A stretch of 64,000 bases of DNA from an uncultured Methylococcaceae bacterium (GTDB lineage Bacteria > Pseudomonadota > Gammaproteobacteria > Methylococcales > Methylomonadaceae). The stretch covers positions 18,659 through 82,658 of the forward strand of contig CAJAVP010000036.1 of NCBI GenBank assembly GCA_903945375.1, in the 5' to 3' direction. Position 1 is the first letter of the stretch. Each line of letters begins with the position of its first letter. Shown here in pieces: positions 2,222 to 11,631 of this stretch. The position numbers and the translations under genes are program-made. The notes under the pieces were generated by a model that did not search any database, was not told where the DNA came from, and was given only the letters and a program-made list of their open reading frames with translations.

Positions 2222-5017
2222 GTGCAAAATCAATTTTCAAACTATTTAGTCGGCATCGATTTGGGCACAACCCATACTGTCGTTGCTTATGCTGTTATGA
2301 ATGCCGAAACGGATATTCATATTTTTGATATCGAACAATTACTTGCCCCCGGACAAGTCGGCGCTAAACCATTGTTGCCATCGGTGCGCTATCATCCGGC
2401 TGAGGGCGAATTATCTGACGCAGATATTTGTTTTTCTTCATCCAGTGACCCTGCTATTTTAGGAGACGCCGCGCGGCTTTTGGGGGCAAAGTCCAAAGGA
2501 CGTTTAGTCACCAGTGCCAAAAGTTGGTTATCCCATCCTTCGGTTGATCACGGTGCGGATATTTTGCCTTGGGGGGCGAGTGATGAGGTGGCTAAAGTGT
2601 CACCTATTGATGCCAGTGCCAGTTATCTAAGCCATATTCGTACCGTTTGGTCGCATAAATTTCCTGATTCACCGTTAGAGCAGCAAGAGATTGTGATAAC
2701 CGTGCCCGCTTCATTTGATGAGGCGGCGAGAGCTTTAACCTTAGAAGCCGCCAAACTGGCAGGGCTTACTCAGGTGCGTTTACTCGAAGAGCCGCAGGCG
2801 GTTTGTTACTATTGGTTAAAGCGCAATGCCCACCAGCTCCAACAAACACTCGCTCGTGTGCATTTATTGTTGGTGTGTGATGTCGGCGGTGGGACTACCG
2901 ATTTGACCTTGATTAAAGTTGAGCAGGGTGCATTTGAACCCAAATTAACGCGCATCGGTGTTGGCGATCATTTAATGTTGGGAGGCGATAATCTGGATTT
3001 AGCCTTAGCGCATTTACTTGAAAAACGCTTGATTGATGGGGGTAAGCGTTTATCTGCTGCCGATTTATCGCAATTACTGGAACAATGTCGTATCGCCAAA
3101 GAACGCTTGTTGGCGGATGATGCGCCCGAGCGAGTCAGTGTTACGTTACTGGGTGGGGGGAGTCAATTATTGGGTGGGGTGCGTACGGCTGAATTAAGTG
3201 CAGAAGAAGTGCGGCATATTGCGCTAGATGGTTTCTTTCCCTTGTCGGGTCTTGATGAGTTGCCAGAGCGCAAACGCAGCGGGGTTGTTGAGTTTGGTTT
3301 GCCTTATGCCGCCGAGCCTGCTGTGAGTAAACATATCGCTGGTTTTTTAAAACATCATCAATCCGTCGCACAGGAAGCATTGCAAGGGGCGGGTTACGTG
3401 CCTGATGCGTTGCTATTGAATGGTGGCGTTTTTCGCAGCCAGCCGATTACTCAACGCTTATTGGCTTTAATCGCATCGTGGCGAGATCAGCCGCCGCAAT
3501 TGCTGGAAAATCACCATCCTGAACTTGCGGTGGCGTTTGGTGCGGTAAGTTATGCGATCGCACGTCGATCCCAAAAACTTAAGATTGGTGGTGGCTCAGC
3601 TCGCAGTTATTTTTTGCTGGTGGATACTGATACGGATAAGGCGATTCAGCAAGGTGTTTGTATTTTACCTAGGGGTAGCGAGGAAGGTGAGGAGATTATT
3701 TTAGCAGACCGTCAATTTGCTCTACGCTTAGGTGTACCGGTGCGTTTTAATCTAGCCTCTATGACCGGCGATAAAGAGTTTAAATCCGGTGATATGGCGA
3801 CGATTGATGAGCAATTTCATGCGCTGCCGCCGCTTGCTGTCGCTTTGGGACATCAATACGCTCAAGATACCCCGTTGACTGAAGTGATTGTGCAATTAGC
3901 TGTCACTCAAACAGAAGTGGGTACGTTAAAAATTCAGTGTGTGGCAGTGGCCGATCATTCACAACGCTGGGATGTTGAATTTCAAATCAGAAAGAAAAGC
4001 AGTCATTCTCTAAGCAGTGAAGCAAGCAGCGTATCGGCTCAAAAATGGCAACTAATTGAAAACAAAATAAACTCGGTGTTTGGTGCTAAATCACGCTTAG
4101 TTGATCCAAATAGCGTTAAAAGTCTGCGAGCTGATCTTGAAAAAATTATGGGTAGTCAGCGCACTGATTGGGAAACGGCGTTGCTGAGAAATATGTTTAC
4201 CTTGTTACTTGAAGGGAGCAAATACCAGCGTCGCTCAGTGTTTCATGAACGTGTTTGGCTGAGTTTAATGGGTTTTTGTTTACGCCCGGGGTTTGGCTAC
4301 CCTTTAGACGATTGGCGAGTCGAGCAACTTTGGAAGATTTATCCACAGGCTATTCAATTTACTAATGAAAATCAAAATTGGACGGAGTGGTGGACATTAT
4401 GGCGACGGATTGCTGGTGGTTTAGATGCTCAGGCGCAAGAGCGAATTTATACGGATATTGCCAAATACCTTGAGCCCTCTTCCAGTAGAAATGCAGGCAT
4501 TGCCAAGCAGTTAAAAACACGGGGTTATGATGAAATTGTCCGCCTAGCGGCGGTATTAGAGCGCTTACCCGCTGCAAAAAAAATTCAATTAGGCGAATGG
4601 CTACTAAAACGCTTACAAAAGGCTAGTGAACCTGATCAGACGTGGTGGGCAGTGGGGCGTATTGGCTCTCGTGTTCCGTTTCATGGCAGTAGTCATAATG
4701 TGATTACTGCTGAGATTGTTTGTGAATGGCTTAAACGATTGCTTGCCGAGGATTGGAAAAAATCAGCTCATATTGGTTTTGCAGCCACCTTACTGGCTCG
4801 TAAAAGCGGTGATCGAGCCCGGGACATTGATGACGCCATGCGCGAGCAGGTGATTAACAAATTAAAAGCCAATAAATCACCGGTGTCATGGATTGAATTA
4901 GTCGAGCAGGTTAAAGAACTAGATGAAAGGGAAGAAAAACAATTATTCGGTGAAGCGTTACCACCGGGCTTAAAGTTGCTTAAGTCGTCGTTTGATCATC
5001 CGTCAGTCAATTCATAA
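2222..5017 (+). CDS. Hsp70-family protein with long C-terminal extension (DUF3731-type DnaK-related protein)
   Basis: GIDLGTTHT, TVPASF, EEPQA and DVGGGTTD actin/Hsp70 ATPase motifs; 931 aa; Trp-rich helical C-terminus. Confidence 0.8.
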   Translation: MQNQFSNYLVGIDLGTTHTVVAYAVMNAETDIHIFDIEQLLAPGQVGAKPLLPSVRYHPAEGELSDADICFSSSSDPAILGDAARLLGAKSKGRLVTSAKSWLSHPSVDHGADILPWGASDEVAKVSPIDASASYLSHIRTVWSHKFPDSPLEQQEIVITVPASFDEAARALTLEAAKLAGLTQVRLLEEPQAVCYYWLKRNAHQLQQTLARVHLLLVCDVGGGTTDLTLIKVEQGAFEPKLTRIGVGDHLMLGGDNLDLALAHLLEKRLIDGGKRLSAADLSQLLEQCRIAKERLLADDAPERVSVTLLGGGSQLLGGVRTAELSAEEVRHIALDGFFPLSGLDELPERKRSGVVEFGLPYAAEPAVSKHIAGFLKHHQSVAQEALQGAGYVPDALLLNGGVFRSQPITQRLLALIASWRDQPPQLLENHHPELAVAFGAVSYAIARRSQKLKIGGGSARSYFLLVDTDTDKAIQQGVCILPRGSEEGEEIILADRQFALRLGVPVRFNLASMTGDKEFKSGDMATIDEQFHALPPLAVALGHQYAQDTPLTEVIVQLAVTQTEVGTLKIQCVAVADHSQRWDVEFQIRKKSSHSLSSEASSVSAQKWQLIENKINSVFGAKSRLVDPNSVKSLRADLEKIMGSQRTDWETALLRNMFTLLLEGSKYQRRSVFHERVWLSLMGFCLRPGFGYPLDDWRVEQLWKIYPQAIQFTNENQNWTEWWTLWRRIAGGLDAQAQERIYTDIAKYLEPSSSRNAGIAKQLKTRGYDEIVRLAAVLERLPAAKKIQLGEWLLKRLQKASEPDQTWWAVGRIGSRVPFHGSSHNVITAEIVCEWLKRLLAEDWKKSAHIGFAATLLARKSGDRARDIDDAMREQVINKLKANKSPVSWIELVEQVKELDEREEKQLFGEALPPGLKLLKSSFDHPSVNS

Positions 5018-5025
5018 GGATGCTT

Positions 5026-5056
5026 TCATAGGGGTAATCGTAAGATGCCCCTATGA
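5026..5056. terminator. Hairpin between convergent genes
   Basis: TCATAGGGG...CCCCTATGA perfect 9-bp inverted repeat. Confidence 0.55.
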
Positions 5057-5069
5057 TATTAAACAATAA

Positions 5070-5477
5070 TTACTGGCTGACTTGGGCAATCCAATCTTGT
5101 AAGTTATAGTAATTGGTAATGCGAGCAATTTTATTATCACGGATTTCAAAAAATGCACCAGCGGGTAACCGATACGTTTGCCCCTTCGCTTCAGGTAGGC
5201 CTTCATCGGTTTTGAGGTATTCGCCTAAGACGACAAATTCAGCCGCCCCACGACTGCCGTCTACAGTTGCCATAATGACCATATCAACTAATTCTTCTTT
5301 GTAGTTAGTATTCATACCGCCCATAAAGCGTGCAAAGGTTTCTTTGCCTATTTCGCGTTTGCCTTGATTGATGTCATGGATGGCATCATCGGTAAGTAGG
5401 CTGAGAAAGGTGTCCATGTCGCCTTGGTTAAAAGAATTGTAGTATTGTTGTATTAAATTAATGCTCTCTTGGTTCAT
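5070..5477 (-). CDS. Ketosteroid isomerase-related / SnoaL-like (NTF2-fold) protein
   Basis: YYNSFNQGD...HDINQG...Y.LPAGAFFEIRDNKIARITNYYNLQDW pattern. Confidence 0.8.
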   Translation of the reverse strand: MNQESINLIQQYYNSFNQGDMDTFLSLLTDDAIHDINQGKREIGKETFARFMGGMNTNYKEELVDMVIMATVDGSRGAAEFVVLGEYLKTDEGLPEAKGQTYRLPAGAFFEIRDNKIARITNYYNLQDWIAQVSQ

Positions 5478-5688
5478 AATGTTTCTCAATGAATTTAAGG
5501 TTGGATATCAGCAATTGCCTGTCTTCGTTGGTTTTTGAAAAAAACGTGTCATATTTTATAGTTTATTGCAGATTAGAACTGGAAAATTTTAAGGCGCTAG
5601 GGTTGTCGTAGTTTTGAGGTGAATTTTATTAGTCAACTCGCTTGTAAAATGATAATTTACAGCTACCCTTTAAAGCCATTACACCGCT

Positions 5689-6432
5689 ATGTTTAATGAT
5701 GCCAATTTGATGATTCAAAAAAATCGAACTCTAAACGAAGCAGCACCGATTTTGAGCTGTTGTTTTTTTTATTTACCCAATTCAAATGTGCTGTTATGGA
5801 GCCCCGAGTTTCATACTTATGAATACTTTCTGGATAAATTAGTCTTTAAGATCGCAAGAAAGCCCAGCTTGCTGATATCTCATATCCAACGTATTTATTA
5901 TTGTTTTCATGCAGATAAAGAAGAACAATTGTTCGCGGCACTGGTCGATTTTCTTTTTATTTTAAACAAGCGTGGCGAAGCTATCAGTTGGCGTATGTTA
6001 ATGGGTGTTAAGTCTCGGCTTAATCCAGAGCGTTTTTTGCAACTAAAAAATTACTTAAAAAATGAGCAAGCCGAGCCTAATTTGTTAGTTGGCAATCATT
6101 ATTCAATTTTAACCAAAGGTTTCATCGGTGGAAATAAGCTGGTGATTCAGCATAAACCAACAGATCAATCAACCTATGATCCACTTGCTTTGGCGCGAGA
6201 TTATATCGAATACAGTCAGCTTGAGGAGGCAAAAAAACTGCTCGAACGAGCCTTGTTAGAAGATCCTGCGCGTTTGGAAATTCATCATGAGCTATTATCT
6301 CTTTATCGTTCTATGCGTGATCACGAGGGTTTTTATGATATGTTTAAGCAAGTAGCGAGGTTGGGGGTTGTTATGAACGAAGAATGGGTTGAAACAAATA
6401 CCTACTTTACAGACAGGGTTAGTAATGGATAA
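5689..6432 (+). CDS. Hypothetical protein with C-terminal TPR/FimV-C-like helices
   Basis: DPLALARDYIEYSQLEEAKKLLERALLEDPAR resembles the FimV C-terminal/TPR motif; first gene of the GTPase operon. Confidence 0.55.
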   Translation: MFNDANLMIQKNRTLNEAAPILSCCFFYLPNSNVLLWSPEFHTYEYFLDKLVFKIARKPSLLISHIQRIYYCFHADKEEQLFAALVDFLFILNKRGEAISWRMLMGVKSRLNPERFLQLKNYLKNEQAEPNLLVGNHYSILTKGFIGGNKLVIQHKPTDQSTYDPLALARDYIEYSQLEEAKKLLERALLEDPARLEIHHELLSLYRSMRDHEGFYDMFKQVARLGVVMNEEWVETNTYFTDRVSNG

Positions 6433-7636
6433 CAATAGCAATCCATTGAAAGTTGCCTTGCATGGCTTAGACGAGCGCAGTTGCAAAATGATGTCGATGT
6501 TTTTGCAGGGGCCTTGTCGCGGTGTCGCCGTTGTCGTCAACGAAAGCAGTGCCGAATGTGAAATATTTGATGCGGATTCGATCAGTGGAAAAGAATTACT
6601 CAGTAATTATTTGCAAAAGGAAATTCAAAAACCGATTGTCATTTTGTCTTTAAATACACCACAAGTAGCCTCTGCCTTTCACGTAAAAAAACCTGTCAAG
6701 ACAGAGGAAATGATAGCAGCGTTACAAAAAGCTAAAAAATCATTAGCTGCTGTAGTCGCACATGCCCCTGTCAACTCATCGGACAATACGACGAATGCAG
6801 TAATCTCTGACGTACAAGACTCCAGTAAACAAGTAGTAGAGGACAAGCTTACAATAAAGCTTCATGTCAAAACGGATGAACAAAAGAAAACCTCCAAACA
6901 TCAGGCGGCTATGCAGTTGGATGAGAAAGGTTTTGTTGGTTTTATTGGCAATGTACCTGGGTTGGATGTTAACGACCCTCGACAGTTTAGTAAGGCACAT
7001 TACAATCCTAAAGAATATTTTCAGGGTTATGTTGATTCAGCATTTAAAGTTAGTCGAGCTAAAGGGCACATTAGGCAGTTAAATTCTGGCTGGAATCCGC
7101 TGATTATTTTTCCACAGAGCGACGAGATTTGGCTTGATGTAGATGAAAGCCAGTTACGGGCGTTTTCAGGGTTGACTATTTCCAATACGCTGGGGGCAAA
7201 AATGTCCATCACGCCACTTAGTGTGGAGAGTGTTGCGATGGAGAGATCATTAGAACGCTACCAAAGCATGGATGCTTTTTTGTGGAAAGTGTCTTGTTGG
7301 GCATCGAAAGGGCGTTATCCAGGGAGTATAGATATTAATCAACCTGTTTTTTTGAAACAATGGCCGAACTTCACTCGATTACTGTTGACACCTCATGCCA
7401 TGCGAATTGCTGCTTTGTTGATTCAAGGGCCGCGAACGTTACTTAATGTGTCACAAGTACTTAATGTAAAGCCTCAGTACGTTTTTGTCTTTATTAGTTC
7501 AGCAAGTGCTTTAGGTTTGGTAGGTCAAACCCGTCGCGGAGCAGATCTTTTAGTCGAACCAGATGAAATTAAAACAAATAAAAACCAAAGTTTGCTGAGT
7601 CGTATCCTCAGTGTTTTACGTGGTAAGAAAGCTTAG
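6425..7636 (+). CDS. Receiver-like N-terminal domain, linker and conserved C-terminal domain (possibly winged helix)
   Basis: KVALHGLDE...EIFDAD...IVILS...VKKPV receiver spacing; ATG 6425 overlaps the upstream stop. Confidence 0.55.
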   Translation: MDNNSNPLKVALHGLDERSCKMMSMFLQGPCRGVAVVVNESSAECEIFDADSISGKELLSNYLQKEIQKPIVILSLNTPQVASAFHVKKPVKTEEMIAALQKAKKSLAAVVAHAPVNSSDNTTNAVISDVQDSSKQVVEDKLTIKLHVKTDEQKKTSKHQAAMQLDEKGFVGFIGNVPGLDVNDPRQFSKAHYNPKEYFQGYVDSAFKVSRAKGHIRQLNSGWNPLIIFPQSDEIWLDVDESQLRAFSGLTISNTLGAKMSITPLSVESVAMERSLERYQSMDAFLWKVSCWASKGRYPGSIDINQPVFLKQWPNFTRLLLTPHAMRIAALLIQGPRTLLNVSQVLNVKPQYVFVFISSASALGLVGQTRRGADLLVEPDEIKTNKNQSLLSRILSVLRGKKA

Positions 7637-7651
7637 TGGAATTTAAATACT

Positions 7652-8188
7652 ATGAGTCAATATAAGATTATTTTCACTGGTCCGGTTGGGGCTGGTAAAA
7701 CCACAGCGATCAATTCCATCAGTGATTTACCGCCTATAAAAACTGATGCTTCTGCGAGTGATATGGCCAAATACCGAAAAGCATCGACCACTGTGGCACT
7801 CGATTATGGTGTGATGAATTTACCCGGTGGGGAAAAATTGCATCTCTATGGAACGCCCGGTCAAGAGCGATTTGATTTTATGTGGGATATTTTGGTGACT
7901 GGCGGAATCGGTTTAGTACTCTTGCTGGATAATACACGCGCTGATCCATTCCAAGATATGCGTTTTTTTTTAGAGACCTTTGAACGGTTTATCGCAGACA
8001 CGACAGTCGCTATTGGTGTCACTCAGATGGATCTAAGTGCTAAACCCAGTATTGATGACTATCATATCCAATTGCGTGGTATGGGTATAAAACCAGCTAT
8101 TTTTGCAGTTGATGCGAGGGCAAAAAGTGACGTTTCTTTGCTCATTCAGGCCTTACTTTATTCCCTAGATCCGGGATTAGAGGGGTAG
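7652..8188 (+). CDS. Small Ras-like GTPase, MglA/CvnD family
   Basis: G1 GPVGAGKT, G2 TTVALDYG, G3 GTPGQERF, G4-like TQMD; 178 aa. Confidence 0.9.
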   Translation: MSQYKIIFTGPVGAGKTTAINSISDLPPIKTDASASDMAKYRKASTTVALDYGVMNLPGGEKLHLYGTPGQERFDFMWDILVTGGIGLVLLLDNTRADPFQDMRFFLETFERFIADTTVAIGVTQMDLSAKPSIDDYHIQLRGMGIKPAIFAVDARAKSDVSLLIQALLYSLDPGLEG

Positions 8189-8190
8189 TT

Positions 8191-8838
8191 ATGGCGAGTG
8201 ACTATACATTGTCTGAAGCGCTTTTTTTGTATCCGACGCCGGCTGGTGCTTATTATGCGGTGTCGACGAAAGATACCGATAAACCCCGTCTGTTCTTAAG
8301 AAGACTGTTACAGCAGGCAAAAACCCCTGCATTAACAATTGAAAATCTTAAACAATTGATGCAAAACGACGATGAAGCAAAGTGTTTTGAATTATTGCAT
8401 CACTGCCAAAATTTGAGTTGGATTCAAGGTTTAGAAATGCCATTAGCGTTTCCTTCAGGGGCTTTGGAAGATATTCTACCCGTCATGTTAGGTAGAATTT
8501 CTGAAAATGGCAAAGTCTTACTCGCTGAAAATCAAGGTTTTTATTTGGCTACGCATGGTTTTCCACATGAAGTCGCTGAAGAATTATCCGCATTGAGTGC
8601 CGAGATAGCTACGGTTCATGAAAGGCGTTCTGGTTTATTAGTTAATAATATGGGTTTAACCAGTCATGCTTGGGCGATTGTCGATGTGTTTGGTAATAGT
8701 GAGGTAGGTTTTTGGCCATTATTTATTGCCAATAATCGTTTCGTTATTGCAATTTACGGGATTCCACATTTTAACCAACCCGAGTTTGTATCTTTGGTTT
8801 GGGCATTGAGTATTCGCTATGCGACAAGGGAGAATTAA
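8191..8838 (+). CDS. Protein with C-terminal divergent roadblock/LC7 (MglB-like) domain
   Basis: VLLAENQGFYLATHGFPHEVAEELSALSA roadblock-like pattern; 2 bp after the GTPase gene. Confidence 0.6.
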   Translation: MASDYTLSEALFLYPTPAGAYYAVSTKDTDKPRLFLRRLLQQAKTPALTIENLKQLMQNDDEAKCFELLHHCQNLSWIQGLEMPLAFPSGALEDILPVMLGRISENGKVLLAENQGFYLATHGFPHEVAEELSALSAEIATVHERRSGLLVNNMGLTSHAWAIVDVFGNSEVGFWPLFIANNRFVIAIYGIPHFNQPEFVSLVWALSIRYATREN

Positions 8839-8885
8839 CTTGAGCGTTGGCATACATTTTTTACATAGGATAAGAGGACATTAGT

Positions 8886-9248
8886 ATGCGTGCAAATATG
8901 TTGACTTCTGTATTAACAGAACTTAATGGTACATCTGCTGATATTGAAGCATCGGGAATTATTTCGACCGACGGTTTAATGATTGCATCGGTATTACCAG
9001 CCTCTATGGATGAAGATCGAGTCGGGGCGATGAGTGCAGCCATGCTATCGTTAGGTGATCGCACCGCACAAGAGCTGGCAAGAGGAACGTTGGAACAAGT
9101 GTTGATTAAAGGCGCTAACGGCTATGTTTTAATGACCTATGCTGGACCAGAATCTGTTTTGACCGTATTAGCAAAACCGAATGCTAAATTAGGGCTTATT
9201 TTCCTTGATGTGAAACGTGCCGCATCGAGTATTGCTGAATTTTTATAG
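8886..9248 (+). CDS. Roadblock/LC7 domain protein (MglB-like)
   Basis: SGIISTDGLMIAS...DRVGAMSAAMLSLG...ELARGTLEQVLIKGANGYV...LGLIFLD canonical roadblock. Confidence 0.9.
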   Translation: MRANMLTSVLTELNGTSADIEASGIISTDGLMIASVLPASMDEDRVGAMSAAMLSLGDRTAQELARGTLEQVLIKGANGYVLMTYAGPESVLTVLAKPNAKLGLIFLDVKRAASSIAEFL

Positions 9249-9259
9249 TTTTAGCTATT

Positions 9260-9760
9260 TTGTTTGCAGATATCGCTATGATTTATGATATGAAGCCTGA
9301 TGATATAGCAGGCATTTATCAGGCAACCACCCTACATTTATTTTGTGGTATATCGAGACGTGTGTTTTATAGCGATATTGAAACTCCCTTTCCTGATGGT
9401 AAATTAATTGTATCAATTACTGACAGAGAAGGAATTATTACTCATGTCAATAAAGCTTTCGTGGAAATGTCAGGTTATACCGATGAAGAATTATTAGGCT
9501 CTCCTCATTCCATTTTAAGACATCCCGATATGCCAGCCTTTGCATTCAAAGAATTATGGGATACCGTCAGTGTGGGTGGGCGCTGGCAAGGTTATGTAAA
9601 AAATCTTCGTAAGGATGGAGGTTACTACTGGGTTAAAGCGACAGTAATACCTAACATCAGAGATGGCAAAATTGTTAGCTACACCTCGATACGTCGGAAG
9701 CCTTCTCGCGCCAAAGTAGAGGAGTGCATTGAGATTTATCGGAGGTTGTCTGCTGCATAA
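9260..9760 (+). CDS. Stand-alone Aer-type (FAD-binding) PAS domain protein; start may be 9278 or 9290
   Basis: VNKAFVEMSGY...PHSILRHPDMP...LWDT...WQGYVKNLRKDGGYYWV closely parallels the E. coli Aer PAS; no TM, HAMP or MCP domain. Confidence 0.85.
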   Translation: MFADIAMIYDMKPDDIAGIYQATTLHLFCGISRRVFYSDIETPFPDGKLIVSITDREGIITHVNKAFVEMSGYTDEELLGSPHSILRHPDMPAFAFKELWDTVSVGGRWQGYVKNLRKDGGYYWVKATVIPNIRDGKIVSYTSIRRKPSRAKVEECIEIYRRLSAA

Positions 9761-10034
9761 TGTATTGATATTGTGGATACGCCTTATCTAGCTAAGGTTT
9801 TTTATAAAACACATGACTATTTTTTCCATATCTAATCGATTATAACGAGCGGTAACCCACTTTAATTTTTCTGTTGTCGATTTGTTTGAATCTTATTTTA
9901 TCGAAACCAGGGGAATATAAAAAACAATCGCAATAAATTAACGTAATCGTTCAGCCACGCACGCTGATCTCTGTTGCACGAGCTGTCAACGACACTAAGC
10001 GCTTTCAAAAATAACTATAAAAGGCAAGGATACC

Positions 10035-10781
10035 GTGTTATACCAATTTGCAGTCAGTCCAGATTTTTCGCCAAATTTTTTACCCGGATGGTATGTTTTC
10101 AATACCTGGTTACAAAAACAAACTAAGCAAAATTTTCATTTAGAAATTTATCAAAGTTTTCAAGCGCAGCAAGAAGCGCTGTCTCGACAGGAAATAGATC
10201 TCATGTATGCGAGTGCGTTTGATGCGGCTATGTTAGTGCGTGAAAATGGCTTTTTACCCGTAGTTAAAGCGGAAGGCTTTTCAGATGAAGCCGTTATAGT
10301 CGCTAGTGCAGAAAATCCAATTAATGAAATAATCGGTTTGAGCGCGGGAACTAAAGTCGCTATAACAGCAAACCCAGATGTTTATATGATGGGTATGATT
10401 ATGTTAGAGTCAGCGGATTTAAGTGCTAATAACATCCAATTTGTTAATTGTGATACTTATGTGACCGTAGCAAAACAGTTACTGCGGGCGCAAGCCGATG
10501 TAGGCTTCTTTCTTGCTGAAGCCTACGATGCTTTTTCGGATACTATTAAAAGCAAGCTAAAGGTTTTAGTTAGGAGTCAAATCAGCCTTATACATCACTG
10601 CCTAATCGTCGGCTCTAACTTAACCCATCAGCGTGCAGAACTGCAAAAAATACTGCTGGGAATGGCACAAAATGAAAAGGGCAGAAGCGCTTTAAAAAGC
10701 TTGGGTTTTTCATCATGGGTTAGTGTTGATGATGAGAATATGGCATTTATGATTGATGTGATGAATGCGCTGGCATCCTGA
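10035..10781 (+). CDS. PhnD/SsuA/transferrin-like substrate-binding-fold protein lacking a signal peptide
   Basis: IDLMYASAFDAAMLVRENGFLPV, ADVGFF motifs; polar N-terminus. Confidence 0.7.
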   Translation: MLYQFAVSPDFSPNFLPGWYVFNTWLQKQTKQNFHLEIYQSFQAQQEALSRQEIDLMYASAFDAAMLVRENGFLPVVKAEGFSDEAVIVASAENPINEIIGLSAGTKVAITANPDVYMMGMIMLESADLSANNIQFVNCDTYVTVAKQLLRAQADVGFFLAEAYDAFSDTIKSKLKVLVRSQISLIHHCLIVGSNLTHQRAELQKILLGMAQNEKGRSALKSLGFSSWVSVDDENMAFMIDVMNALAS

Positions 10782-10819
10782 CACGTGTTAGTCAACACAT
10801 TGCAAAAATAACTGATTAG

Positions 10820-11383
10820 TTATTGGTCAGATGGCTTTTTATAGCCAGACCACATGGACTTGACTAAATTTTCGCCGTGTAAATAACTTTCCACAATGAC
10901 GCCTATAATATGAAATATAACCAGTGCAACGGTGAAGTTTGCAAAAAGCTCATGCAGATCCTCCCAGAGCGCTTCATTAGCTGAGCCAATGCCTGCTAAG
11001 GGCCCTGCGTTTTGGTCGGCACCATAAACAGCAACGCCGGTCAAGGTAGTTATCAGTAGACTGATTAATAAGAAGACAATCATCATCGCACCAGCGGGAT
11101 TGTGACCTAGGTAGCGCGTGGCTGTTTTGTGTCTAAGGTCTTGTAAATACCTTATGGCTGTTGTAGGTTTACATAGGAAGCTTGAAAAACGAGCATACTT
11201 ACTCCCTAAAAAACCCCACAGTAACCGAAAGCACAGTAAGCCGAATACGCCATAACCCGACCAAACATGAACAGCTAACAACTCATCTTCGGTCACATAG
11301 CAAATCAAAAAACCGATAACCAGTAACCAATGAAAAATTCTTAAAGGTAAATCCCAAACTTTGCATAATTCTTGTGAGTTCAT
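10820..11383 (-). CDS. Cytochrome b (Ni/Fe-hydrogenase cyt b / b561-like) membrane protein
   Basis: VWDLPLRIFHW, HVWSGY, GHNP.G, DLHE and FHIIGV heme-ligand His motifs. Confidence 0.85.
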   Translation of the reverse strand: MNSQELCKVWDLPLRIFHWLLVIGFLICYVTEDELLAVHVWSGYGVFGLLCFRLLWGFLGSKYARFSSFLCKPTTAIRYLQDLRHKTATRYLGHNPAGAMMIVFLLISLLITTLTGVAVYGADQNAGPLAGIGSANEALWEDLHELFANFTVALVIFHIIGVIVESYLHGENLVKSMWSGYKKPSDQ

Positions 11384-11631
11384 ATTAAAAATCCAGATAA
11401 ATTAAAAGTAAAACAGTGGTGAGCGCTCATGATCTGTGCGAATATAAATCTAGCGACTACTAATATACCGTTAAGTCGCTTTACTTAGCTAACATAAAAA
11501 GCCAGTTTTTATGCAGATTCCTCAAATACTTTATCGTAATGCGATACAGATAATAATTAACACGTGTTCAGTGAAGGATGAACCGTAAATAACCCCAAAG
11601 TTTCCCTTAGATTAAACAAAGTAACACGATT

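Follow-up and report, generated by a model that had tools for sequence, protein, structure and literature searches.

The locus at positions 5689-10781 of the window (a stretch of 64,000 nucleotides from contig CAJAVP010000036.1 of assembly GCA_903945375.1, an uncultured Methylococcaceae bacterium) is probably, with a confidence somewhat better than even, a Group 3 MglA system of seven genes, acting as a kinase-less cytoplasmic G-protein pathway with exchangeable O2 or redox sensors. The genes, named g1 to g7 from 5' to 3', encode a TPR protein (g1), a receiver-like protein (g2), a Ras-like GTPase (g3), two Roadblock/LC7 proteins (g4 and g5), a stand-alone Aer-type PAS protein (g6) and a PhnD-fold protein (g7). 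A preliminary description, made from the letters alone, had reported seven co-oriented, mostly tightly spaced genes with one 274-bp gap before the last; all seven open reading frames (ORFs) were recovered in the same orientation (+) at unchanged coordinates, and the gap is real. Its calls of a receiver-like protein, a Ras-like GTPase with intact G1-G3, two Roadblock/LC7 proteins, an Aer-type PAS and a signal-less PhnD-fold protein were likewise borne out by the domain, profile and structure searches.

The g3 protein matched PF03029 (E = 2e-11) and Ras (E = 1.2e-5), as expected for a P-loop small GTPase, and carried the motifs GPVGAGKT (G1), TT (G2), GTPGQ (G3), TQMD (G4) and DAR (G5). Motif conservation was counted over 100 orthologs, among which G1-G5 were nearly invariant (GTPGQ, TT, T[QRK]MD, DAR). 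Within the G3 segment YGTPGQERF (residues 66-74), G67, T68, P69 and G70 never varied and Q71 was found in 99 orthologs. At G2, T46 (98 orthologs) and T47 (all 100) were present, with Thr replacing the intrinsic Arg finger. The second position of TQMD (124-127) was Q in 76, R in 18 and K in 4 orthologs, while D and R of D154-A155-R156 were invariant.

Prokaryotic MglA proteins fall into five groups, of which Groups 2-5 lack the intrinsic arginine finger and have GTPGQ in common; in Groups 2 and 3 the G4 lysine is missing as well and G5 reads DAR, and Group 3 is restricted to beta- and gammaproteobacteria (Wuichet & Søgaard-Andersen, PMC4316618). The Group 1 hallmarks were absent from g3, which has Thr at the Arg-finger position, GTPGQ instead of TVPGQ and TQMD instead of NKxD. 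Carrying the motifs of Groups 2-5 without these hallmarks, g3 is therefore closer to the actinobacterial conservon GTPases, and its sequence assigns it to Group 3. The neighbourhood agreed with this assignment, with a receiver-like/variable-linker/winged-helix protein followed by MglA and by one or two MglB. In Table S2 of the same catalogue, Group 3 includes MEALZ_2464 of Methylomicrobium alcaliphilum (<MglB<MglB<MglA<DUF) and Metme_1347 of Methylomonas methanica (DUF>MglA>MglB>MglB>), with GTPases of 178-179 aa, and its further hosts include Neisseria (N. meningitidis NMB0476), Acidithiobacillus, Xanthomonas and Stenotrophomonas (PMC4316618). A GTPase of M. methanica (P0073) was 83% identical to g3, and the GTPase was single-copy in each sampled genome of a genus-level group that includes at least one Methylomonas.

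Because g3 shows each of these motifs and Table S2 lists the same gene order in methanotrophs, g2-g5 are assigned to a catalogued class, the Group 3 MglA system, whose four-gene core was listed by computer in 2014. The preliminary description knew of no functional characterisation of the architecture; the four-gene core was not unknown, as methanotroph loci of the same architecture were already included in the catalogue. Group 3 systems such as N. meningitidis NMB0476-0479, MEALZ_2464 and Metme_1347 have the same GTPase motifs, gene order and taxonomic range as the locus. The published description of the group comprises four genes and mentions no upstream TPR protein or sensor gene, whereas the module of the window has seven, including the pair of an Aer-type PAS and a PhnD-fold protein. 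No description of g1 as a fixed member, of the g6/g7 pair or of an exchangeable sensor slot was found in the searchable literature.

The short Roadblock gene g5 (Robl_LC7, E = 3.6e-17) was the most conserved of the module, with 70-98% identity across the class and an invariant D29-G30 pair. Such an Asp-Gly pair was noted in MglBs of Groups 2-5 and predicted to lie close to the GTPase (Wuichet & Søgaard-Andersen, PMC4316618). On its own sequence g4 had no Pfam or NCBIfam family; at the family level, 26 of the 53 diverse members searched matched Robl_LC7 (best 4e-5), and a profile of the family retrieved from the PDB, over residues 89-152, CvnB5 as best match (3LEQ, 3e-4), LAMTOR2 and other Roadblock structures. 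The family is small: in a set of 1.8 billion proteins it forms 275 clusters when grouped at 50% identity, and its members are nearly always ~210 aa long. Their first 90 residues are a separate three-helix region of unknown fold, with weak winged-helix matches in a few members. These matches argue for g4 being a divergent Roadblock protein with an extra N-terminal domain. The two Roadblock proteins were asymmetric in that g5 retains the Asp-Gly pair, while in g4 the residue before Gly is variable.

No Pfam or NCBIfam family was matched by g2 (cluster representative of 403 aa), the receiver family PF00072 included. Its N-terminal domain was modelled at a predicted local distance difference test score (pLDDT) of 80-90 (AlphaFold2, 25 homologs), and the 16 best Foldseek matches of this model, together with nearly all of the top 50, were receiver or pseudo-receiver domains (target template-modelling score 0.5-0.63; probability 1.00 for the best matches). 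Phospho-acceptor-type residues were widely kept, with D61 after beta3 in 88 of 94 aligned orthologs, S87 after beta4 in 82 of 98, and K101 and P102 after beta5 in 92 and 94 of 98, respectively; the beta1-alpha1 loop had one acidic residue only, D28 (74/98). The model thus points to a receiver fold that keeps phospho-acceptor-type residues. The C-terminal region, after a variable linker, gave weak HTH_20 matches in 10 of 25 family members. The protein ends in a conserved helix, [GS][LF][LF]x[RK][IL][LI]x[KR]L[R], with a hydrophobic moment (muH) of 0.64, which is among its most amphipathic segments and presumably resembles the membrane-targeting tail of MinD.

The g1 protein gave a weak TPR_19 match (E = 0.005) and some of its orthologs exceeded the Pfam cut-offs for TPR_14 or TPR_19. 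The TPR part of its earlier TPR/FimV-C-like label is thereby upheld, while the FimV-C part is dropped (FimV_Cterm 13.6 bits against a cut-off of 30.65). In most loci, within and outside Methylococcales, g1 preceded g2, and natural fusions of g1 and g4 of 470-474 aa were found (representative proteins P0380 and P0423). Gene order and fusions indicate that this TPR protein belongs to the module as a constant fifth component. On one contig of a metagenome-assembled genome (MAG; L094, 240-1630), g1 was directly followed by g4, and g2 was relocated downstream of g7.

The distribution of the module was followed in 121 genomes of the order, in 400 GTDB genomes of the class, and in 80 named loci fetched with a g5 profile. 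A GTPase ortholog was present in 63 of the 121 order-level genomes, and tblastn placed g1-g7 colinearly in ~15 of 20 loci from ~10 families of the order. Among the named loci, the full g1-g7 series was found in 48 of the 80, and the rest lay mostly on truncated contigs. Other gammaproteobacterial families had the same seven genes in the same order. The flanking genes of the window (SnoaL, Hsp70-DUF3731, cytochrome b561) were not conserved in relatives (20 loci). The seven-gene arrangement is thus confirmed as far beyond chance, the genes being co-conserved between differing flanks. Across the class, the GTPase was found in 60 of 400 genomes, i.e. ~15% of sampled Gammaproteobacteria in the GTDB sense, and among 20 class-level loci the g1-g5 core was present in 13 and g6-g7 in 6. 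The recurrent flanks of 120 loci were only generic OmpR-type regulators and kinases, or reflected genus-level synteny.

The closest GTPase homologs belonged to Methylovulum, Methylobacter, Methylomonas and other Methylococcales, and in a tree of g3 and g5 the nearest rows to the window were Methylovulum MAGs (93% identity). The window accordingly stems from a Methylovulum-like methanotroph. Both g3 and g5 were single-copy in the genome of the window.

The g6 protein aligned with the PAS structure of E. coli Aer (8DIK) over 122 residues (E = 9e-36), followed by the PAS domains of MmoS and NifL that bind flavin adenine dinucleotide (FAD), and its conserved signature comprised RHPDMP, a following Trp and VKNxRKxGxxYWV. 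Unlike Aer, it is a soluble protein of ~160 aa with its own N-terminal extension of ~30 aa, conserved in orthologs; the ORF ends after the PAS, and the domain search found no membrane anchor, HAMP, chemoreceptor (MCP) signalling, kinase-control or other domain. The g7 protein matched PF12974 (3.5e-39) over 241 of 242 model positions, and its family profile matched PtxB (5e-7), ArrX (8e-5), PhnD (2e-3) and AioX. These members of the same fold family carry leaders, reside in the periplasm and have a transporter or a kinase as partner. In contrast, g7 is taken to have no leader because the ORF opens directly with the fold's first strand, as in 16 of 16 order-level orthologs examined, with a stop codon upstream of the first start in the window; no ABC permease or ATPase genes were found in its neighbourhood in the window, and its partner is a PAS protein of the cytoplasm. 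The binding proteins ArrX and AioX act in sensing jointly with a kinase, which would be a precedent for a signalling role of g7.

In every locus where it was found, g7 adjoined g6, and in all but one of the genomes examined the pair directly followed g5, with gaps of ~30 and ~15 bp. The one exception (G118) had g6-g7 moved jointly to another chromosomal site. The GTPase gene was present in nearly all genomes with a g7 ortholog; the exceptions were G027, where g2, g3 and part of g1 were lost and g4-g7 kept (L151:7977-10918), and G035, with only a g7 fragment at a contig end. In a 2.7-Mb genome (G100; C1:1328373-1331523), both the GTPase gene and g7 had in-frame stops. On the g3 and g5 tree, the presence of g6-g7 required at least 11 gains or losses. 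Overall, g6 and g7 behave as an inseparable accessory pair tied to the module, as far as comparative genomics can tell.

Other sensor genes were found at the same position. In nine loci, including that of Methylobacter marinus A45, a protoglobin gene (PF11563) separated g4 from g5 or came right behind g5. Four loci with a five-gene version of the module, among them one Ca. Thiodiazotropha MAG, had, immediately downstream of g5, a stand-alone chemoreceptor zinc-binding (CZB) protein of 119 aa (L052:9686-10045, L057:9834-10193, L065:6418-6777, L148:9455-9814). In family f4 and in G058, a PAS-SpoIIE/PP2C-kinase protein and a STAS-PhnD protein abutted or interrupted the module. Of 20 class-level loci sampled at random, 12 had at least one such sensor. 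The place adjoining g5 is thus a predicted sensor slot, in which a protoglobin or CZB protein occurs instead of, or besides, the PAS pair in other lineages. The preliminary idea that redox and ligand sensors feed the switch is backed by this slot and by the gene linkage.

Additional observations concerned the same sensor families. Six loci of Methylobacter and Methylomonas (L106:8428-9363, L111, L134, L139, L140, L144) had an orphan g5 directly preceded by a 187-aa protoglobin gene; these were second copies, at least 83% identical to the g5 query, and lay far from the GTPase module. Neither the orphan g5 nor its protoglobin was found in the genome of the window. At the CZB position, L055, L060 and L068 had ORFs of 118-129 aa without Pfam match. 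A partner-switch-like cassette recurred in Methylococcales (L153:4300-8371, L041:10778-14655, L034:9217-13061), composed of a cytoplasmic STAS-PhnD fusion protein and of a large phosphatase protein (SpoIIE/PP2C) that bears CBS or PAS and, in one of the three loci, an RsbW-type kinase domain too. In the genome of the window, this cassette was on a different contig (C82, L153), away from the module.

Regarding the mechanism, g4 and g5 would form an asymmetric Roadblock heterodimer that would bind a single GTPase and control its nucleotide state, most likely by serving as GAP (GTPase-activating protein), by analogy with MglB and MfpD, with g1 as a scaffold bound to g4. MglB is described as a dimer binding MglA in a 2:1 ratio with different roles for the two protomers (PMC3199381, PMC11016934), acting as GAP or as guanine nucleotide exchange factor (GEF) in the form of an asymmetric dimer (PMC11016934). 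A g4/g5 heterodimer would fix genetically the asymmetry seen between MglB protomers. MfpD is a Roadblock protein proposed as GAP. The signal input is placed at g5 because every alternative sensor adjoins it: the flavin of g6 would report O2 or the cellular redox state and, with g7, modulate the Roadblock pair, g7 probably binding a small anionic metabolite and either adding a small-anion signal or acting as an adaptor. GTP-bound g3 would then act through g2, which its C-terminal amphipathic helix probably tethers to the membrane, with the winged-helix region binding DNA or acting on g3. The foremost candidate for reading the GTP state is g2, either by binding DNA or at the membrane.

Related observations come from other bacteria. 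In N. meningitidis, NMB0478, which is at the g4 position, was obtained as a DNA-binding protein from fractions of the inner membrane. The meningococcal GTPase NMB0477 was 5.1-fold up in a strain without the Fur-controlled small RNA NrrF compared to a strain expressing it, and NrrF controls respiratory complexes as well. In conservons, accessory sensors such as the GAF protein CvnF occur where the kinase has no sensor domain.

Several observations weigh against a sensor-driven seven-gene pathway of this kind. The choice of the GAP or GEF supplier among the Roadblock pair, g2 and g1 is drawn purely by analogy, and the FAD cofactor of g6 and the ligand of g7 are predicted from similarity only. 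The C-terminal part of g2, with its weak HTH_20 matches, was modelled at low confidence and had no match in a profile search of the PDB. For g4, the AlphaFold2 model was poor (pLDDT 42, shallow alignment) and was for this reason left out of the fold search, and direct profile comparison with g5 (hhalign) was not significant, though in the right register, so that its Roadblock assignment rests on the family-wide Pfam matches and on the PDB profile search. At the genome level, ~15 genomes of the order had the core without g6-g7; since the five-gene core runs without the pair in numerous genomes, the sensors are dispensable for the switch itself. Finally, the 274-bp gap preceding g7 in the genome of the window could hold a separate promoter.

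Among the alternatives, a wiring like that of the actinobacterial conservons is unlikely: g2 would be both exchange factor and input platform instead of the output (the roles of CvnA and CvnC), a kinase encoded elsewhere would phosphorylate its receiver-like domain, and the target of GTP-bound g3 would be an effector protein that is likewise unlinked, as MfpA is for MfpB. Conservons (AGPS; CvnA-D, MfpB-E; Group 2) resemble the locus in combining in one operon a Roadblock protein and a GTPase with GTPGQ and DAR, with optional accessory sensors, and the motifs common to Groups 2 and 3 extend to the Lys-less G4. In addition, among solved structures the g4 profile matched a conservon protein best, and D61, S87 and K101-P102 of the g2 receiver are kept in ~90% of 98 orthologs. 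MfpC, a winged-helix-like DUF742 protein, is reported as GEF (PMC11343762). However, there was no DUF742/CvnC match (PF05331) in the seven proteins or, at permissive thresholds, in 25 members of the g2 family and 53 of the g4 family. Similarly, no HATPase or HisKA domain, as in the CvnA kinase, was found in the seven proteins and no kinase gene was conserved within the module or in its flanks, and the beta1-alpha1 loop of g2 retains a single acidic residue. Since it has neither a kinase nor a DUF742 protein, the module of the window is not a conservon; it differs further by two Roadblock proteins instead of one, by TQMD instead of NxFD at G4, and by a receiver-like/winged-helix protein and a TPR protein in place of the kinase.

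A Myxococcus-like polarity switch, as suggested in the preliminary description, would place or activate type IV pili or flagella at the pole, with g2 in the role of RomR and g1 in that of SgmX, and redox would steer motility as a form of aerotaxis without Che proteins. This is quite improbable. The MglA-MglB couple of Myxococcus xanthus and Thermus thermophilus (Group 1) belongs to the same superfamily, with a Ras-like GTPase regulated by Roadblock-fold proteins, and the wider Myxococcus network (MglC, RomR/RomX, SgmX) also has a further Roadblock paralog along with receiver-type and TPR proteins. The proposed parallel in parts list nevertheless fails on closer comparison: the GTPase of the window shows none of the Group 1 hallmarks, all parts of the module are in one operon, and g2 (with a winged-helix tail) and g1 (with one TPR stretch) are like RomR and SgmX in broad domain type only, their sizes and architectures being different. 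Regarding motility, g6 derives from the PAS type of the aerotaxis receptor, and in Snodgrassella an orphan mglB allele of Group 3 led to motile flares on soft agar and to an advantage in gut colonisation. On the other hand, no pil, fla or che genes were conserved beside the module in 120 loci, and in a null mutant of N. meningitidis NMB0478, piliation, aggregation and competence were those of the wild type. Non-motile according to their descriptions, Methylovulum species also had complete modules, as did endosymbionts of mussels and snails, but the argument from non-motility is weakened because the genome of the window encodes three PilT-family ATPases and FliG elsewhere.

That g6 and g7 are an independent two-gene sensor unit merely neighbouring the GTPase module, making two functional units, is very improbable: the gap before g7 in the window, the relocated pair in G118, the many lineages with g1-g5 only and the repeated gains and losses of the pair would suit it, but the near-constant position of the pair after g5, the GTPase module or remnant in nearly all genomes with g7, the joint decay of both genes in G100 and the other sensor types filling the same slot speak for one system.

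The features of the locus are listed in Table 1, and the spacing of the genes in relatives supports the seven-gene Group 3 reading. Starts at ATG 6425 for g2, giving an 8-nt overlap with the g1 stop, and at ATG 9278 for g6 are probable. With these starts, the overlap is followed by spacings of 15, 2, 47 and ~29 bp, and finally by the 274 bp before g7. In ~80 loci of relatives, the median intergenic distances from g1 to g7 were -4, 15, 3, 48, 30 and 15 bp, the gap between g6 and g7 reaching 159 bp at most, so that the 274 bp are an outlier peculiar to the genome of the window. Apart from this spacer, its sole peculiarity, the locus is one ordinary member of a conserved set.

Table 1. Genes and other features of the locus and of its upstream gap (positions in the window; functions of the proteins are predicted).
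Feature	Position	Strand	Description
Candidate sigma-70-type promoter	5535-5562	+	TTGAAA-16-TATAGT, consensus scan, 10/12 matches; in the 199-bp gap upstream of g1
g1	5689-6432	+	247-aa protein, C-terminal TPR region, N-terminal domain of unknown fold
g2	6389-7636	+	Receiver-like domain, variable linker, conserved C-terminal region with winged-helix-like segment, terminal amphipathic helix
g3	7652-8188	+	178-aa Ras-superfamily GTPase, MglA Group 3
g4	8191-8838	+	215-aa protein, N-terminal three-helix domain of ~90 aa (possibly winged-helix) and divergent Roadblock/LC7; 'MglB-1' position
g5	8886-9248	+	120-aa canonical Roadblock/LC7 ('MglB-2')
g6	9260-9760	+	Stand-alone Aer-type (FAD-type) PAS, ~160 aa
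Spacer	9761-10034		AT-rich, 274 bp, weak hairpin at 9951-9967
g7	10035-10781	+	248-aa cytoplasmic PhnD/PtxB-fold (type II binding-protein) domain, no signal peptide

The promoter upstream of g1 is a candidate only, because such sites were no commoner in the region than in shuffled sequences. An Rfam search of positions 5000-11500, spacer included, matched no family. The AAAATGATAATTTA motif upstream of g1 was kept within Methylovulum only. Similarly, the motif TTGTAAAATGATAATTTA (5630-5650, ~45 bp upstream of g1) was present in all Methylovulum loci and not beyond the genus, and may be part of the promoter or an operator. As a Fur box, a possibility raised by the NrrF/Fur link in Neisseria, TTGTAAAATGATAATTTA was rejected (7/19 mismatches, not significant), and the best Fur box matches upstream of g1 were no better than in shuffled sequence. 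Further upstream, positions 2222-5017 encode a 931-aa Hsp70-like protein with a C-terminal DUF3731 ('DnaK-related'), which was not conserved beside the module in relatives.

Three further observations were made on individual loci. A class I adenylate cyclase gene (932 aa) was located ~650 bp downstream of g7 in L088 (11285-14083) and in nine other loci, mostly of Methylomonas, which may be plain genus-level synteny. A Methylococcaceae-type module was found on a contig labelled Methyloversatilis universalis (L127, DYIL01000032.1); this contig is probably mis-binned or mislabelled, since GTDB places the genome (G119) among Methylococcales. In Methylocaldum, a 5.3-Mb replicon bearing a locus (L118, NZ_CP194902.1) was titled 'plasmid'.

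More broadly, Group 3 MglA operons may tentatively be viewed as a widespread form of kinase-free O2, redox or oxidant sensing, in which soluble sensors that can replace one another would dock onto an asymmetric, hard-wired heterodimer of Roadblock proteins and thereby set the state of a Ras-like GTPase. The sensors encountered are a flavin PAS with its PhnD-fold partner, a haem protoglobin, a zinc CZB protein and a STAS-PhnD partner switch. The sensor genes beside the short Roadblock gene provide a testable hypothesis both for the input (O2, redox state or oxidants) and for its entry point (the Roadblock pair). A complete seven-gene version was found in Methylotuvimicrobium buryatense (L100), one of the non-pathogenic methanotrophs that are amenable to genetics and are studied for their responses to oxygen limitation. 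If this view is true, the pathway would be, in methanotrophs living at oxic-anoxic interfaces, a principal means by which gene expression or membrane physiology is adjusted to O2 supply.

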